From: a virus | Lineage: Duplodnaviria; Heunggongvirae; Uroviricota; Caudoviricetes | Virus record (IMG/VR): IMGVR_UViG_2526164601_000022 | Length of the DNA stretch: 17,593 nt | Direction: 5' to 3' (one strand) | Shown here: in pieces, positions 5,235 to 17,069 of the stretch | Position numbering within the stretch: position 1 is the first letter of the stretch | Layout of the letters: each line of letters opens with the position of its first letter | Notes under the pieces: generated by a model | The model's input: the letters and a program-made list of their open reading frames with translations, nothing else | The model's database searches: none | Told to the model about the DNA's origin: nothing | Position numbers and translations under genes: made by a program

Positions 5235-5433
5235 TTTTCAGAATGCCTTTGATGCTGCCCTTGCCGGGGTGGACAGCACGATTGTTGAAGTGATGGGGCT
5301 CTGTGCGCAGTTCACCTCGGGGGCACAGTGTGGCAGCGAAGTTCAGGGGGTTTTTGACGATCCGGAGTCGCTGGGGTTTGCCGGTAGCGGGGTCCGTATT
5401 GAAGGAAGCTGCCCGTCATTATTTAACTGGTAA
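5227..5433 (+). pseudogene. FII: Head-tail connector gpFII, C-terminally truncated (about 66 homologous codons, then NW-stop)
   Basis: MRDFQNAFDAALAGVDSTIVEVMG...GVFDDPESLGFAGSGVRIEGSCPSLF matches the first ~66 residues of recalled lambda FII (117 aa); reading frame ends at TAA 5431-5433 where homology stops. Confidence 0.7.
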
Positions 5434-6966: not shown

Positions 6967-7398
6967 ATGTTTCTGAAAACAGAACAATTTGAATATAACG
7001 GTGTGTCTGTCACGCTTTCCGAATTGTCTGCGCTGCAGCGTATTGAGCATCTTGCCCTCCTGAAACGGCGTGCAGAACAGGCAGAATCCAGCGGCAACCT
7101 GCAGGTAAGCGTGGAAGATCTCGTCAGAACCGGCGCGTTTCTGGTGGCGATGTCCCTGTGGCATAACCATCTGCAGAAAACGGGGTCACCGTCAATGAAT
7201 GAGGCCGTGATGCAGATTGAGCAGGAAGTCCTGACCACCTGGCCTGCTGATGCCATTGCCCGGGCGGAAGACGTGGTGTTGTGCCTGTCCGGGATGATCG
7301 AAGCTGTTCGTCCGGATACTGATATTACTGAAGTGGCGAAAAATAACACGCTGACTGATGATGATTTTTCTGCGGGAAAGTCTTCGACGGCGAGCTGA
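6967..7398 (+). CDS. G: Tail assembly chaperone gpG
   Basis: 143 aa (lambda G 140); MFLKTEQFEYNGVSVTLSELSALQRIEHLALLKRRAEQAES...GAFLVAMSLWHNH matches recalled lambda G; SD GGAGG upstream. Confidence 0.9.
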   Translation: MFLKTEQFEYNGVSVTLSELSALQRIEHLALLKRRAEQAESSGNLQVSVEDLVRTGAFLVAMSLWHNHLQKTGSPSMNEAVMQIEQEVLTTWPADAIARAEDVVLCLSGMIEAVRPDTDITEVAKNNTLTDDDFSAGKSSTAS

Positions 7399-10398: not shown

Positions 10399-10724
10399 AA
10401 ACATTTCGCTGGAAAGTGAAGCCGGATATGGAGGTGAACTCGCAGCCATCGGTGCGTGAAGTGCGTTTTGGTGACGGGTATTCGCAGCGTATGGCGGCGG
10501 GGCTGAATGCTGACCTGAAAACATACCGTGTGACGCTTTCCGTGACCCGGGAGGAGGCCCGACATCTGGAGGCATTCCTGGCAGAGCACGGTGGCTGGAA
10601 GGCGTTTCTGTGGACACCGCCTTATGCCTGGCGGCAGATAAAGGTGACCTGTGCCGCCTGGTCATCACGGGTTCGCATGCTGCGGGTTGAATTCAGTGCC
10701 GAGTTTAAGCAGGTGGTGAACTGA
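10395..10724 (+). CDS. M: Minor tail protein gpM
   Basis: 109 aa, same as lambda M; MKTFRWKVKP...VRFGDGYSQR...KTYRVTLSV...HGGWKAFLWTPPYAWRQIKVTCAAWSSRVRMLRVEFSAEFKQVVN matches recalled lambda M; ATGA overlap with H and L. Confidence 0.92.
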   Translation: MKTFRWKVKPDMEVNSQPSVREVRFGDGYSQRMAAGLNADLKTYRVTLSVTREEARHLEAFLAEHGGWKAFLWTPPYAWRQIKVTCAAWSSRVRMLRVEFSAEFKQVVN

Positions 10725-11421
10725 TGCAGGATATTCACGAAGAAAGTCTGAACGAGTCGGTTAAATCAGAGCAGTCACCGCGGGTGGTGCTCTGGGAAAT
10801 TGACCTGACGGTGCAGGGCGGTGAGCGGTATTTTTTCTGTAATGAGCTGAATGAAAAAGGGGAGGCGGTCACCTGGCAGGGGCGGCAATATCAGGTATAC
10901 CCGATTGACGGCAGTGGCTTTGAGATGAACGGGAAGGGCAGCAGTGCCCGCCCGTCGCTGACGGTGTCGAATCTGTTCGGTCTGGTCACCGGAATGGCGG
11001 AGGACCTGCAGAGCCTGGTGGGGGCCACGGTGGTCCGCCGCCGGGTGTATGCCCGTTTTCTGGATGCGGTGAATTTTGTGGCGGGCAATCCGGAAGCGGA
11101 CCCGGAGCAGGAGCTGAGCGACCGCTGGGTGGTGGAGCAGATGTCAGAGCTGACGGCCATGACAGCCTCGTTTGTGCTGGCAACACCGACGGAGACGGAC
11201 GGAGCGCTGTTTCCCGGTCGCATTATGCTGGCGAATACCTGTATGTGGACCTACCGCTCTGATGAGTGTGGTTACACGGTCCTGCGGTGGCGGATGAGTT
11301 CGATAAACCCATCACCGATATCCGTAAGGACAGATGCAGCAAGTGCATGCGCGGGTGTGAGATGCGCGGCATGGTGGCTAATTTTGGCGGTTTCCTTTCC
11401 ATTAACAAACTTTCGCAGTAA
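10724..11421 (+). pseudogene. L: Minor tail protein gpL, 1-bp frameshift near codon 185 (or assembly indel)
   Basis: Residues 1-184 match recalled lambda L (…GRIMLANTCMWTYRSDECGY); the lambda-like C-terminus GPAVADEFDKPITDIRKDRCSKCMRGCEMRGMVANFGGFLSINKLSQ-stop continues from 11278 in frame +2 relative to the start, implying one missing base at 11276-11278. The uninterrupted track ORF (to 11731) is the out-of-frame readthrough. Confidence 0.75.
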
Positions 11422-11426
11422 ATCCA

Positions 11427-12170
11427 ATGACACAGACAGAATCAGCGATTCTGGCGCATGCCCGGCGGTGTGCGCCTGCGGAGTCGTGCGGCTTCGTGGT
11501 GAGAACGCCGGAGGGGGAGCGGTATATCCCTTGTGTGAATATCTCTGCAGAGCCGGAGGCGTATTTTCGTATTGCACCGGAAGACTGGCTGCGGGCAGAG
11601 ATGCAGGGGGAGATTGTGACACTGGTCCACAGTCATCCCGGTGGTCTGCCCTGGCTGAGCGAGGCCGACCGGCGGCTGCAGATAAAAAGTGCACTGTCCT
11701 GGTGGCTGGTCTGCCGGGGGGAAATTCATAAATTCCGCTGTGTGCCACATCTGACAGGACGGCGCTTTGAGCACGGGGTGACGGACTGTTACACGCTGTT
11801 CCGGGATGCCTACCATCTGGCGGGAATTGATATGCCGGATTTTGAGCGTGAGGATGACTGGTGGCGCAACGGTCAGAACCTTTACCTGGACAATATGGAG
11901 GCGACTGGTTTTTACAGGATTTCCCTGCCTTCCGCACAGCCTGGCGATATCCTGCTGTGCTGCTTTGGCGCATCGGTGGCCAATCATGCCGCCATATACT
12001 GCGGCAACGGTGAACTGCTTCACCATCTGCCTGAACAACTGAGTAAACGGGAGAGGTATTCCGAAAAATGGCAACGACGAACGCATTCAGCCTGGCGTCA
12101 CCGCCACTGGCACGTATCTGCCTTCACGGGGATTTACAACGATTTGGCCGCCGCCTCAGCCTGTATGTGA
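11427..12170 (+). CDS. K: Tail tip assembly protein gpK (JAB/MPN metalloprotease + NlpC/P60 domains)
   Basis: 247 aa; JAMM motif HSHPGGLPWLSEAD (HxHx7SxxD); C-terminal Cys/His region (GVTDCYTLF...NHAAIYCG...HH) consistent with NlpC/P60; 103-nt overlap with I as in lambda. Confidence 0.88.
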   Translation: MTQTESAILAHARRCAPAESCGFVVRTPEGERYIPCVNISAEPEAYFRIAPEDWLRAEMQGEIVTLVHSHPGGLPWLSEADRRLQIKSALSWWLVCRGEIHKFRCVPHLTGRRFEHGVTDCYTLFRDAYHLAGIDMPDFEREDDWWRNGQNLYLDNMEATGFYRISLPSAQPGDILLCCFGASVANHAAIYCGNGELLHHLPEQLSKRERYSEKWQRRTHSAWRHRHWHVSAFTGIYNDLAAASACM

Positions 12171-12748
12171 ACACGGCAGCGGAAGCCATCCGTGCCCTGT
12201 CGATGCAGATGCCGGGATTCCGCCGTCAGATGAACGAAGGCTGGTACCAGATACGTATTCGCGGTGAGGACACGGCACCGGAGGCGGTGTACGCCCGTCT
12301 TCACGAACAGCTGGGTGAGGGAACGGTCATCCACATTGTGCCGCGACTGGCCGGGGCCGGAAAGGGTGGACTGCAGATTGTGCTGGGGGCGGCAGCCATC
12401 GTGGGGTCGTTCTTCACGGCCGGGGCATCAATGGCGTTATGGGGTTCAGCCCTGGCAGCCGGTGGTTTTTCTGCCACCACGATGCTGTTTTCACTGGGGG
12501 CCAGCATGATTCTGGGTGGTGTGGCCCAGATGCTGGCCCCGAAGGCAAAAGCACCGGATTACCGCGCAACGGATAACGGCAGACAGAACACGTACTTTTC
12601 CTCACTGGACAACATGATTGCTCAGGGGAACCCGATGCCGGTGCCTTACGGTGAAATGCTGGTTGGCTCCCGCCGTATATCCCAGGACATCAGTACCCGT
12701 GATGAAGGCGGTGACGGGAAGGTGGTGGTTATCGGGCGGCAGGCATAA
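12068..12748 (+). CDS. I: Tail tip assembly protein gpI
   Basis: 226 aa (lambda I 223); MATTNAFSLASPPLARICLHGDLQRFGRR...GWYQIRI...VIHIVPRLAGA...QNTYFSSLDNM matches recalled lambda I. Confidence 0.9.
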   Translation: MATTNAFSLASPPLARICLHGDLQRFGRRLSLYVNTAAEAIRALSMQMPGFRRQMNEGWYQIRIRGEDTAPEAVYARLHEQLGEGTVIHIVPRLAGAGKGGLQIVLGAAAIVGSFFTAGASMALWGSALAAGGFSATTMLFSLGASMILGGVAQMLAPKAKAPDYRATDNGRQNTYFSSLDNMIAQGNPMPVPYGEMLVGSRRISQDISTRDEGGDGKVVVIGRQA

Positions 12749-12752
12749 AAGC

Positions 12753-12791
12753 GAAAAAATCCCGCAGTGCTCACGGACAGGAACTGCGGGA
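12753..12791 (-). terminator. Candidate intrinsic terminator for - strand transcription (distal to sodC)
   Basis: 9-bp inverted repeat TCCCGCAGT (12760-12768) / ACTGCGGGA (12783-12791), 14-nt loop; on the - strand the stem is followed by U6 (complement of A6 at 12753-12758). No U-tract on the + strand. Confidence 0.35.
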
Positions 12792-12901
12792 GAGTTACGA
12801 AGATTGAGTGTAAGGAATTATTCTTATGTCACGACAAAAACATTAACTCAGAGAGGGAGGATGTGCCGTTCTTTTCAGGGAGAAAGGATTTATCGTCCTG
12901 A

Positions 12902-12929
12902 GGAATAAAGGTAAGGGCCCGCCCTTACC
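12902..12929 (-). terminator. Candidate intrinsic terminator of sodC
   Basis: Perfect 9-bp inverted repeat GGTAAGGGC (12910-12918) / GCCCTTACC (12921-12929), 2-nt spacer; on the - strand followed by UUUAUUCC; 8 nt downstream of the sodC stop. Confidence 0.45.
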
Positions 12930-12936
12930 TGACTGA

Positions 12937-13464
12937 TTATTGAATGATGCCGCAGGCCATTCTCGCACCACCACCGCCCAGGGGCTCCGGATGGTCATGA
13001 TGGTTATCACCGCCAGCATGAAGCATGAGAGAACGCCCTTTAATCTCTTTTAATGAGTTCAGTCTCGGGGCCAGGACCGGGTAGTTCGCTTTTCCGTCAT
13101 GCGTCACGAACAGCGCAGGGAGGTCGCCCAGGTGTCCATCCGGAGACCAGGGGCCAAGATGTTTGCCGGTGTTTTTCGGGTCAAAGTGACCGCCAGCCGA
13201 TAATGCTGCGACCGGTTTTCCGTCTTTCAGTGCCGGGGCGCAATTTCCTTTTTCGTGCACATGAAAACCATGAATGCCTTCAGACAGAGAGTGAAGGGCT
13301 GGTGTGAACAGCAGACCGTAGGGGGTCTCCTGAATGGTTATTTTTCCAATGCTGACTTCTTTTCCGTCAGCACTGACAAGGTTCATTGGGACTTCCTGTT
13401 CTGCTGCGTATCCGCATGATGCTGCTGTCAGCATGGCAATGGCAGCAATGATTTTACATTTCAT
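12937..13464 (-). CDS. sodC: Periplasmic Cu,Zn superoxide dismutase (prophage cargo/moron)
   Basis: 175 aa from ATG at 13464-13462 with SD GAGGG 6 nt upstream; signal peptide [20 protein letters not shown]; Cu/Zn-SOD motifs [47 protein letters not shown]. The 344-aa track ORF is an upstream over-extension. Confidence 0.9.
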
Positions 13465-13597: not shown

Positions 13598-16500
13598 ATG
13601 GGTAAAGGTGGCGGCAGGGCGCACACACCTCGTGAGGCGAAGGACAATCTCAAATCCACGCAGATGATGAGCGTGATTGACGCCATTGGTGAAGGGCCGA
13701 TTGAAGGTCCGGTGAAGGGGCTGCAGAGTATCCTGGTGAACAAAACCCCGCTGACGGACACGGACGGTAATCCTGTGATACATGGTGTGACCGCGGTCTG
13801 GCGCGCCGGGGAGCAGGAGCAGACACCACCTGAAGGCTTTGAGTCCTCCGGGGCGGAAACCGCACTGGGCGTGGAAGTGACGAAGGCAAAGCCGGTGACG
13901 CGCACCATTACATCCGCGAACATTGACCGCCTGCGGGTCACCTTCGGGGTGCAGTCACTGGTGCAGACCACGTCAAAGGGTGACCGAAACCCGACATCCG
14001 TCCGACTGCTGATTCAGTTACAGCGTAACGGTAACTGGGTGACGGAAAAGGATGTCACCATTAACGGCAAGACCACCTCGCAGTTTCTGGCGTCGGTGAT
14101 TCTGGATAATCTGCCTGAGCGGCCCTTTAACATCCGGATGGTCCGGGAGACAGCGGACAGCACCTCGGACCAGCTGCAGAATAAGACGCTCTGGTCGTCA
14201 TACACCGAAATCATCGATGTGAAACAGTGCTACCCGAACACGGCGATTGTGGGGCTGCAGGTGGATGCGGAGCAGTTCGGCGGCCAGCAGATGACGGTGA
14301 ACTACCATATCCGCGGTCGCATCATCCAGGTGCCGTCAAACTATGACCCGGAAAAACGCACGTACAGTGGTATCTGGGACGGCAGTCTGAAACCGGCATA
14401 CAGCAACAACCCGGCCTGGTGTCTGTGGGACATGCTGACTCACCCGCGCTACGGCATGGGAAAACGTCTGGGGGCGGCGGATGTGGACAAGTGGGCGCTG
14501 TATGCCATCGGGCAGTACTGCGACCAGACGGTCCCGGATGGTTTCGGGGGGACCGAGCCGCGGATGACCTTTAATGCGTACCTGGCACAACAGCGTAAGG
14601 CGTGGGACGTTCTCAGTGATTTCTGCTCTGCGATGCGCTGTATGCCGGTATGGAACGGTCAGACGCTGACGTTCGTTCAGGACCGCCCGTCGGATGTGGT
14701 GTGGCCGTACACCAACAGCGATGTGGTGGTGGATGATAACGGCGTGGGATTCCGCTACAGCTTCAGTGCCCTGAAGGACCGGCACACGGCGGTGGAGGTG
14801 AATTACACCGACCCGCAGAACGGCTGGCAGACCTCCACGGAACTGGTGGAAGACCCGGAAGCCATACTGCGCTACGGACGCAACCTGCTGAAGATGGACG
14901 CGTTCGGCTGTACCAGCCGCGGTCAGGCCCACCGTGCCGGACTGTGGGTGATAAAGACCGAACTGCTGGAAACGCAGACGGTGGATTTCACGCTCGGGTC
15001 TCAGGGGCTGCGGCACACACCCGGTGACATTATTGAAATCTGTGATAATGACTATGCCGGGACCCTGACCGGCGGACGTGTCCTGTCCATTGATGCTGCC
15101 ACCCGCACCCTGACGCTGGACCGTGAGGTGACCCTGCCGGAGACAGGTGCCGCCACGGTGAACCTGATTAACGGCAGCGGTAAGCCGGTGAGTGTGGCCA
15201 TCACTGCACACCCCGCGCCGGACCGGATACAGGTCAGCACCCTGCCTGATGGTGTGGAGACATACGGTGTATGGGGACTCTCCCTGCCGTCACTGCGTCG
15301 TCGCCTGTTCCGCTGTGTCTCCATCCGGGAAAACACGGACGGCACCTTTGCCATCACGGCGGTGCAGCACGTACCGGAAAAGAAGCCATCGTGGATAACG
15401 GGGCCAGCTTTGAGCCGCAGTCAGGCACCCTGAACAGCGTTATTCCACCGGCAGTGCAGCACCTGACGGTGGAGGTGAGCGCGGCTGACGGTCAGTATCT
15501 GGCACAGGCGAAATGGGACACGCCGCGGGTGGTGAAGGGTGTGCGCTTCAGTCTGCGCCTGACCAGCGGAAGCGGAGAAGACAGCCGTCTGGTGACCACC
15601 GCCATCACTGCGGATACAGAGCATCGTTTCAGTGGTCTGCCGCTCGGGGAATACACCCTGACAGTCAGGGCAATTAACAGTTATGGCCAGCAGGGGAACC
15701 GGCCACCACCACGTTCAGGATTAATGCACCTGCGGTACCGCCACGATTGAGCTGACACCGGGCTATTTTCAGATAACAGCGGTCCCGCGTCTTGCGGTGT
15801 ATGACCCGACGGTACAGTTTGAGTTCTGGTTTTCGGAGGCAAAAATCGCAGACATATCTCAGGTGGAAACCTCTGCCCGTTATCTGGGGACCGGCAGTCA
15901 GTGGAGTGTATCCGGCCCGCACATTAAGCCCGGGAAGGATTTCTGGTTTTACGTGCGCAGCGTCAACCTGGTGGGGAAATCTGCTTTTGTGGAAGCCAGT
16001 GGCCGGGCCAGCAATGATGCAGAAGGGTATCTGGGACTGTTTCGGGAAAAAATAGGAAAACTGCATCTGGCTCAGGGGCTGTGGGAGCTGATAGACAACA
16101 GCCAGCTTGCGGATGAGATGGCGGAGATGAAGACCACCATCACCGAAACCCGCAATGAAATCACACAGACGGTCAGTAAAACGCTGGAAGACCAGAGCGC
16201 CACCATACAGCAGATACAGCGCGTGCAGAAGGACACAAATGATGACCTTGCTGCACTTTACATGCTGAAGGTACAGAAAACAAAAAATGGCATACCCTAT
16301 GTTGCCGGTATTGGAGCGGGGATTGAGGATACTGATGGCCAGCCCCTGAGCAACATACTGCTGCTGGCTGACCGTATTGCGATGATTAACCCGGAGGACG
16401 GCAACACCACGCCGTTATTTGTGGCGCAGGGGAATCAGTTGTTCATGAACGATGTGTTCCTGAAGCGGCTGTTTGCGGTGAGTATCACCTCGTCCGGCAA

Positions 16501-17069
16501 TCCCCCGACGTTTTCCCTGACGCCGGAGGGCAGGCTGACCGCAAGAAATGCTGATATCAGCGGTAACGTGAATGCGAATTCCGGGACGCTCAACAACGTC
16601 ACGATTAACGAGAACTGTCGGGTTCTGGGAAAACTGTCCGCGAACCAGATTGAAGGCGATCTCGTTAAAACAGTGGGCAAAGCTTTCCCCCGGGATTCCC
16701 GTGCACCGGAGCGGTGGCCATCAGGGACCATTACCGTCAGGGTTTATGACGATCAGCCGTTTGACCGACAAATTGTTATTCCGGCGGTGGCATTCAGCGG
16801 CGCTAAGCATGAGAGAGAGCATACTGATATTTACTCCTCATGCCGTCTGATAGTGCGGAAAAAACGGTGCTGAAATTTATAACCGTACCGCGCTGGATAA
16901 TACGCTGATTTACAGTGGCGTTATTGATATGCCTGCCGGTCACGGTCACATGACGCTGGAGTTTTCGGTATCAGCATGGCTGGTGAATAACTGGTATCCC
17001 ACAGCAAGTATCAGCGATTTGCTGGTTGTGGTGATGAAGAAAGCCACCGCAGGCATCAGTATCAGCTGA
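13598..17069 (+). pseudogene. J: Central tail fiber / host specificity protein gpJ, interrupted by four 1-bp indels (or assembly errors)
   Basis: Colinear with recalled lambda J (1132 aa) from [22 protein letters not shown] to the C-terminal ...[14 protein letters not shown]-stop (17067-17069), but homology hops frames at ~15378-15381 (A4, -1), ~15693-15696 (G4, -1), ~15744-15746 (-1) and 16859-16864 (A6, +1). SD GAGAGGAACATT before ATG 13598. Confidence 0.8.

Follow-up and report, generated by a model that had tools for sequence, protein, structure and literature searches.

A frame break in minor tail gene L of an Escherichia coli O26:H11 prophage contig is probably a consensus artefact of multi-copy prophage DNA

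In the draft genome of Escherichia coli O26:H11 strain DEC9E, the minor tail gene L of a lambda-like prophage is split between two reading frames at a small block of sequence that belongs to a second common allele of the gene. We consider this frame break to be probably an artefact of sequencing or consensus calling, in prophage DNA present in many copies. It is likely to be absent from the DEC9E chromosome, and we infer that it originated in the sequencing or assembly and not in the cell. The true L gene of DEC9E probably encodes a normal 232 aa homologue of lambda gpL, so that the frameshift probably has no biological reality. The hybrid structure of the site, its uniqueness, the co-residence of the two alleles in related genomes and an excess of 1 nt changes in the same part of the contig were all observed directly.

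The stretch of DNA analysed here (the window) is the entire 17,593 bp contig AIGO01000013.1 of the draft assembly GCA_000249975.2 (2012) of E. coli O26:H11 DEC9E, an stx-negative strain isolated in Mexico in 1986 (AIGO; PMC5592225, Table 1), for which frameshifts in cas3 have been flagged as possible sequencing or assembly errors (PMC5592225). According to the gene calls and Pfam families, the window encodes a lambda-type head and tail module with the gene order W, B, C/Nu3, D, E, FI, FII′, Z′, U, V, G, T, H, M, L, K, I, sodC, J and the start of lom, with sodC on the minus strand and lom only begun at the window end. The sodC gene (12937-13464, minus strand), located between I and J, is a phage-borne cargo gene encoding an intact Cu/Zn superoxide dismutase (PF00080, 175 aa), and is found at the same position in B1_2, H19, DEC9B and E2. 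The complete E. coli genomes closest to the contig were the O26-type genomes B1_2, DEC9B and H19 (98.4-98.6%), and the whole contig was contained in no complete E. coli genome searched. The finished sister strain DEC9B served as the main reference for the difference lists, and the contig-wide comparison was based on ORF lengths, chunked alignments and the sequences of DEC9B and of prophage L008.

Gene L is located between M and K, as in the lambda-type tail module, but in the window it is not the single ORF of about 232 aa that covers the whole Phage_tail_L domain: the ORF at 10724-11731 translates into 335 aa, while L is 699 nt (232 aa) in every relative checked for gene length. The product leaves the lambda gpL sequence after ...WTYRSDECGYT (codon 185) and continues with VLRWRMSS..., with the window reading GGTTACACGGTCCTGCGG at 11270-11287. 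The 5′ part of L in the native frame (codons 1-185, 10724..11278, plus strand) represents the A-type allele of the DEC9 lineage, and the sequence is identical to that of DEC9B over 10994-11279. The 3′ part (11278..11421, plus strand; 47 codons and the stop codon) is present intact one frame off, where the frame from 11278 reads GPAVADEFDKPITDIRKDRCSKCMRGCEMRGMVANFGGFLSINKLSQ up to the stop codon at 11419-11421 and encodes GPAVADEF...CSKCMRGC...SINKLSQ, which aligns to lambda gpL residues 186-232. In the frame of the 5′ part, translation proceeds instead into an out-of-frame read-through of 150 codons (11279..11731, plus strand) that is unrelated to gpL by translation and Pfam, covers the 3′ end of L together with 305 nt at the start of K, passes the K start codon at 11427 and stops at 11729-11731. 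Gene K itself (11427..12170, plus strand) is intact and encodes JAB and NlpC/P60 domains (Pfam), and the exact 247 aa K protein adjoins an intact 232 aa, fully B-type L in three other assemblies.

Profile searches placed the interruption at the same point. The PF05100 (Phage_tail_L) profile matched residues 31-186 of the 335 aa product with its positions 3-159 (E = 2.7e-71), with no Pfam match past residue 186, and the 47 aa piece from 11278 matched positions 159-206 (E = 2.5e-12); as the profile is split at position 159 over two frames, the domain is broken exactly at the frame break. When the two frames were joined, the resulting 232 aa sequence aligned over residues 1-232 with lambda gpL (PDB 8iyk chain L, E = 1e-123). 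The C-terminal cysteine cluster CSKCMRGC is absent from the 335 aa product and is encoded only in the shifted frame. The gpL-family proteins are said to bind an iron-sulfur cluster through their C-terminal cysteines, as reportedly described by Tam et al. in 2013. Alignment to related L genes, which a preliminary description of this DNA had proposed as a check, showed that all relatives compared carry one extra base at the break site, with 707 bases in the query versus 708 in the phage records and 801 versus 802 in the E. coli genomes. The same description had placed the break at this position, had read an intact lambda-like C-terminus from 11278 in the other frame and had considered the 150-codon extension non-homologous. 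Translation and the split of PF05100 bear out the first point, and translation and the gpL alignment the second, while the extension indeed lacks a Pfam domain and has as its only database look-alikes other frame-shifted L products (for example P0007 and P0008).

The break is located in a polymorphic patch of L (11224..11287, plus strand), for which alignments and difference lists revealed two linked haplotypes, A and B, differing at approximately 20 of the 64 positions. The A haplotype reads ...GGTTAC-ACGG-GCGGGGCT and is carried by B1_2, H19, 12867 and DEC9B (...ACCTACCGCTCTGATGAGTGTGGTTAC ACGG GCGGGGCT, protein ...TYRSDECGYTGGA), with the codons TAC ACG GGC GGG GCT at the site in DEC9B, whereas the B haplotype reads ...GGGTATA-ACGG-TCCTGCG and is carried by Stx1 phage EH1995, L008 and L009 (...GATTACCGGGGAGATGAATGCGGGTATA ACGG TCCTGCG, protein ...DYRGDECGYNGPA). 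The window contains both: it is A-type over 11224-11275, at all 14 diagnostic bases, followed by the junction ACGG (11276..11279, plus strand), which is common to A and B, and then by an island of seven B-type bases, TCCTGCG (11280..11286, plus strand), which replaces the 8 nt GCGGGGCT of DEC9B with a net change of -1. The hybrid is represented by the string GAGTGTGGTTACACGGTCCTGCGG, and likewise by GAGTGTGGTTAC followed by ACGGTCCTGCGG, and the A-type sequence by ACGGGCGGGGCT. Since ACGG stands in a different codon phase in A and B, an A/B hybrid is one base short, and it is here that the frame is lost.

With the exception of the island block, the window L is identical to DEC9B over 10994-11405. 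This includes a T at 11312 that is common to the window and DEC9B and absent from every other relative aligned, and because this DEC9B-specific base returns at 11312, the B-type tract is between 7 and at most 36 nt in length. The patch is flanked by perfect identity, over 272 nt on one side and >100 nt on the other. A simple crossover of two parents, in which the left side would be 12867-like and the right side L008-like, was also considered, and is weakened by DEC9B sharing the rare T at 11312. Judged from the aligned sequences, the L lesion is a templated B-type island in an A-type gene of the DEC9 lineage, and not a plain one-base deletion. The preliminary description had proposed that one base is missing between TAC and GGT, which holds when the window is compared with the allele TAT AAC GGT CCT, but not when it is compared with DEC9B, where an 8 nt block has become a 7 nt block. 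Its reading as the mere loss of one base from a gene that is normal elsewhere is not supported by the DEC9B comparison, with 7 nt of a second allele standing in place of 8 nt. The observation was correct in every detail, and its interpretation is only partly supported. Among the gpL homologues P0001-P0120, residues 185-188 (window 11276-11287), which follow ...ECGY, are hypervariable, with NGPA, HGPA, SGPA, TGGA, TGPA, TGRA, DGPA and other variants seen, and the flanking ECGY and VADE[FY]D are nearly invariant.

The hybrid was not found outside this contig in the collections searched. An 81 nt query across the L junction gave a best match of only 93.9% in 5,426 complete E. coli genomes, neither frameshifted nor in-frame hybrid patterns were detected in IMG/VR, GTDB representatives or JGI metagenomes, and the 335 aa product was present in no contig besides AIGO01000013.1 in an index of 153 billion genes. 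As a positive control, the A-type left side was recovered from at least 120 IMG/VR loci, and was followed by the 8 nt A-type right side in 120/120. Both alleles do occur together in single genomes, since several O121 strains (such as RM8352 and 2014C-3599) have an A-type copy and an exact B-type copy, and O26:H11 strains such as 11368 have the exact B-type 122-mer among approximately nine matching L-gene copies per genome. As both alleles co-reside in these related genomes, the B-type template was very probably also present in DEC9E, where it would have been available to recombination in the cell as well as to the read pile of the assembler.

The patch also shows variation and breakage elsewhere. 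In the P0045 haplotype, which stands for 1,713 member sequences, the A-type CGCTCT is present within a B-type background, and fine-scale shuffling inside the patch thus occurs naturally. Many L proteins in the databases are of aberrant length, and about 4 of the 32 complete A-type L genes in the IMG/VR loci are out of frame or truncated. In L proteins annotated as 'partial' (1,691 and 199 member sequences), the last residues are precisely ...CGYTG or ...CGY, from which it follows that contigs break there and that the patch is troublesome for assemblers. Several independent L fusion proteins (P0055, P0059, P0067 and P0071) break exactly after ...CGY and enter I, J or other sequence. P0059 looks as if the DNA between two copies of ATAACGG, one in L and the other in I, had been deleted; such breaks may represent a fragile site or an assembler artefact. 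An independent frameshift of L, caused by GGGG becoming GGG in an A-type patch, is located 9 nt from the window site in E. coli 2013C-3264 (locus L005, NZ_CP027544.1, 1201-1281), where L is annotated as 'frameshifted' and the same prophage has frameshifted tape-measure and tail-assembly genes beside it. In the complete genome of E. coli E2 (locus L014, NZ_CP104509.1, 1-120), L is cut and joined directly to the last codons of I, so that K is missing along with most of I, and sodC and J are retained; this truncated L was considered as a break at the window site and rejected, as its junction is at ...AAGGACAGATG.

Gene L is not the only part of the contig with 1 nt changes. According to the gene calls, alignments and the DEC9B difference list, gene J (13598..17069, plus strand) is broken into pieces of 611, 119, 358 and 46 aa by four 1 nt changes, these being A5 to A4 at 15378-15382, loss of C from GGGCG at ~15696, C3 to C2 at ~15738 and A5 to A6 at 16859-16864, the last an insertion that follows the three deletions relative to DEC9B. 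Over 15320-16767 the contig has no substitutions compared to DEC9B, yet it has three 1 nt deletions in 1.45 kb. Natural divergence is expected to give far more substitutions than indels, and the contig does not have this spectrum; going by the sequence comparison, three deletions without a single substitution are a sign of an unreliable consensus and not of natural gene divergence. Two further changes are in a GC-rich hairpin between I and sodC (12915..12925), where G4 has become G3 and C4 has become C3 compared to DEC9B and L008, one in each arm. The hairpin is GGTAAGGG-CCCG-CCCTTACC in the window and GGTAAGGGG-CCCG-CCCCTTACC in DEC9B, L008 and E2. In the window each arm is shorter by one base, so the stem still pairs, and the change represents either paired run-length miscalls or a compensated variant.

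Besides the change in L there are six 1 nt length changes, five of which are changes in homopolymer length. All seven are located in the 3′ 6.9 kb of the contig and none in the 5′ 10.7 kb, in which 12 ORFs have exactly the reference length and the net indel is zero, apart from one deletion of 327 bp. The 5′ part holds 52 homopolymers of at least 5 bases, and yet is without 1 nt changes. Under uniform placement, the chance that seven changes would all be in the 3′ 39% of the contig is 0.39^7, or ~0.001. The region from L to J is the part that is highly identical to other lambdoid prophages of such genomes. Differences between the window and DEC9B in L-K-I (window 10900-12800) are grouped in discrete patches (10915-10993, 11406-11438, 11899-11996, 12089-12209, 12309-12367 and 12493-12622), most of which match alleles of other prophages (12867, L008 and Stx1 phage EH1995), and this patchwork may reflect either gene conversion among co-resident prophages or the consensus of collapsed copies.

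The 327 bp deletion, with its junction at 5424..5425 (plus strand) in the comparison with B1_2 and H19, has cost FII its 3′ end and Z its 5′ end. Its flanks are 100% identical to both genomes. The deletion lacks terminal repeats and looks genuine. None of the eight best matches among complete genomes, DEC9B included, shares it. If it is real, the prophage would be unable to join heads to tails or to complete tails. That L is essential for the lambda tail tip, as had been pointed out in the preliminary description, therefore adds little here, since the prophage taken at face value is already defective through the FII/Z deletion and a J gene in four pieces.

The genomes of O26:H11 strains contain many lambdoid prophages with near-identical L-K-I-J paralogs, and both L alleles are among these. 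In the explanation that we favour, the consensus over this multi-copy stretch would have been built from error-prone or mixed reads, and 8 nt of the resident A-type allele (GCGGGGCT, which includes two G runs) would have been swapped for the 7 nt that follow ACGG in a B-type paralog, with the phase mismatch of ACGG between the alleles leaving the consensus hybrid one base short. A graph-type misassembly, in which the path switches between paralogs, was excluded since the junction shares only 4 nt; a misjoin in the assembly graph cannot form on a 4 nt overlap, and hence an artefact needs a consensus of mixed reads. An artefact is favoured because the contig shows the same signature of 1 nt errors in the same region, clustered in multi-copy DNA, because the hybrid is unique in all collections searched, and because RecA-type recombination does not favour an exchange as short as 7-36 nt, whose left end falls in a 4 nt match although hundreds of identical bases flank the patch. 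It resembles the homopolymer and consensus errors known from draft assemblies of repeated DNA in that five of the six other changes are run-length changes and in the clustering in multi-copy tail genes, but differs from these in that the L lesion is a templated 7 nt block and not a run-length miscount. Counting against an artefact are the FII/Z deletion, which if real would leave the prophage without selection, so that real frameshifts would be tolerated, and the natural fine-scale mosaics in the patch, as in the P0045 haplotype.

These last two points are shared with the reading that takes the frameshift as genuine and L as a pseudogene of a decaying, already defective prophage, which we regard as possible but doubtful. 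The lesion could then have arisen by short ectopic gene conversion or a template switch, in which a co-resident B-type L donated no more than 36 nt to the A-type copy, with the junction in ACGG separating compensating +1 and -1 differences and leaving a net -1, in the way that separating a (+) from a (-) frameshift mutation does. The exactness of the hybrid, with 14 A-type diagnostic bases and then 7 B-type bases, is as expected from such an event, and single related genomes do have both L alleles; the FII/Z deletion, if the record is right, would have freed L to decay, patch mosaics of this fine scale occur naturally, and disrupted L genes are common in databases, judging from the IMG/VR A-type loci (~4/32), the aberrant protein lengths and the 2013C-3264 frameshift 9 nt away. 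However, the tract would be extremely short, with a left junction of 4 nt despite 272 nt and >100 nt of perfect flanks, the hybrid allele is found nowhere else in the collections searched, and the implausible excess of 1 nt changes within stretches identical to DEC9B indicates that the consensus is unreliable in the same multi-copy region. A real frameshift produced specifically by recombination between co-resident L alleles with compensating +1/-1 patch phases is judged unlikely.

Two further explanations fit the site less well. A plain 1 nt deletion, either real or a homopolymer undercall, in a hybrid that was otherwise in frame would require a parent with TAC ACG GGT CCT GCG (TGPA, with G3 reduced to G2) or TAC AAC GGT CCT GCG (NGPA, with an A lost), the in-frame parent strings being GGTTACACGGGTCCTGCGG or GGTTACAACGGTCCTGCGG. 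At the protein level the TGPA motif is indeed found in L homologues of ~75% identity, and run-length undercalls (C3 to C2, for example) are seen elsewhere in the contig; nevertheless, neither in-frame hybrid with these flanks is present in any collection searched, the DEC9B lineage has the full A-type block, so that at least five changes in 7 nt would be required, and the deletion would need to coincide exactly with the hybrid junction, all of which makes this origin very improbable. Still less credible is a functional arrangement, be it programmed -1 frameshifting to full-length L or a purposeful extension of L over K, to which we attach next to no weight. If the ribosome slipped by -1 after ACG (11276-11278), ...GYTGPAV... 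would formally be regained, but U UAC ACG G (11272-11279) is not a slippery heptamer of the X XXY YYZ type, all relatives have a single-frame L and none has the two-frame arrangement, and the extension is without a domain, its homologues being frame-shifted products only.

When its two frames are joined, the window L has the same full-length alignment as lambda gpL (PF05100; PDB 8iyk chain L) and is found in the same M-L-K-I-J order, whereas the deposited gene differs in being split at profile position 159 and lacking the last 47 residues, including the CSKCxxxC cysteines. The contig is like the decaying lambdoid prophages of Shiga toxin-producing E. coli in being one of many in an O26:H11 genome and in having several inactivating lesions, and a frameshifted L has also been annotated in 2013C-3264; unlike in those prophages, the lesions in the window are mostly 1 nt run-length changes in stretches identical to the sister strain, which points to data quality and not to decay. 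Whether an artefact or a real pseudogene, the L lesion falls in well-known categories, either draft-assembly error or prophage decay. What is mildly new, as far as the alignments can tell, is that the two common L alleles share ACGG in different codon phases, so that any chimera across it, whether formed in the cell or by computer, would be frameshifted.

In practical terms, L-K-I-J of this contig cannot be trusted at single-base resolution, and neither the frameshifted L nor the J in four pieces should be scored as a pseudogene, or taken as proof of a defective prophage, without read-level checks. If the lesion is real, it would add to the inactivating lesions of a lambdoid prophage that is only one of many defective ones in an O26:H11 strain, which is a well-known state. 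An in vivo origin would make it a minor case from nature in which recombination has parted frame differences that compensate each other. Should the recombinational origin be true, an exchange ending between the phase differences would kill L, which would amount to a built-in incompatibility of co-resident tail-tip alleles, and the breaks after ...CGY in P0055, P0059, P0067 and P0071 would be a hint that L contains a site prone to breakage or exchange.

The programmed -1 frameshift of lambda G/T is similar to the arrangement in L in being a change of frame in a tail gene of the same module, and differs from it in that the L site has no slippery sequence and is conserved in no relative. The canonical G/T -1 slippery heptamer GGGAAAG is present in the window at 7374-7380, near the end of G, and this prophage has thus kept the programmed frameshift by which the tail assembly chaperone is made.
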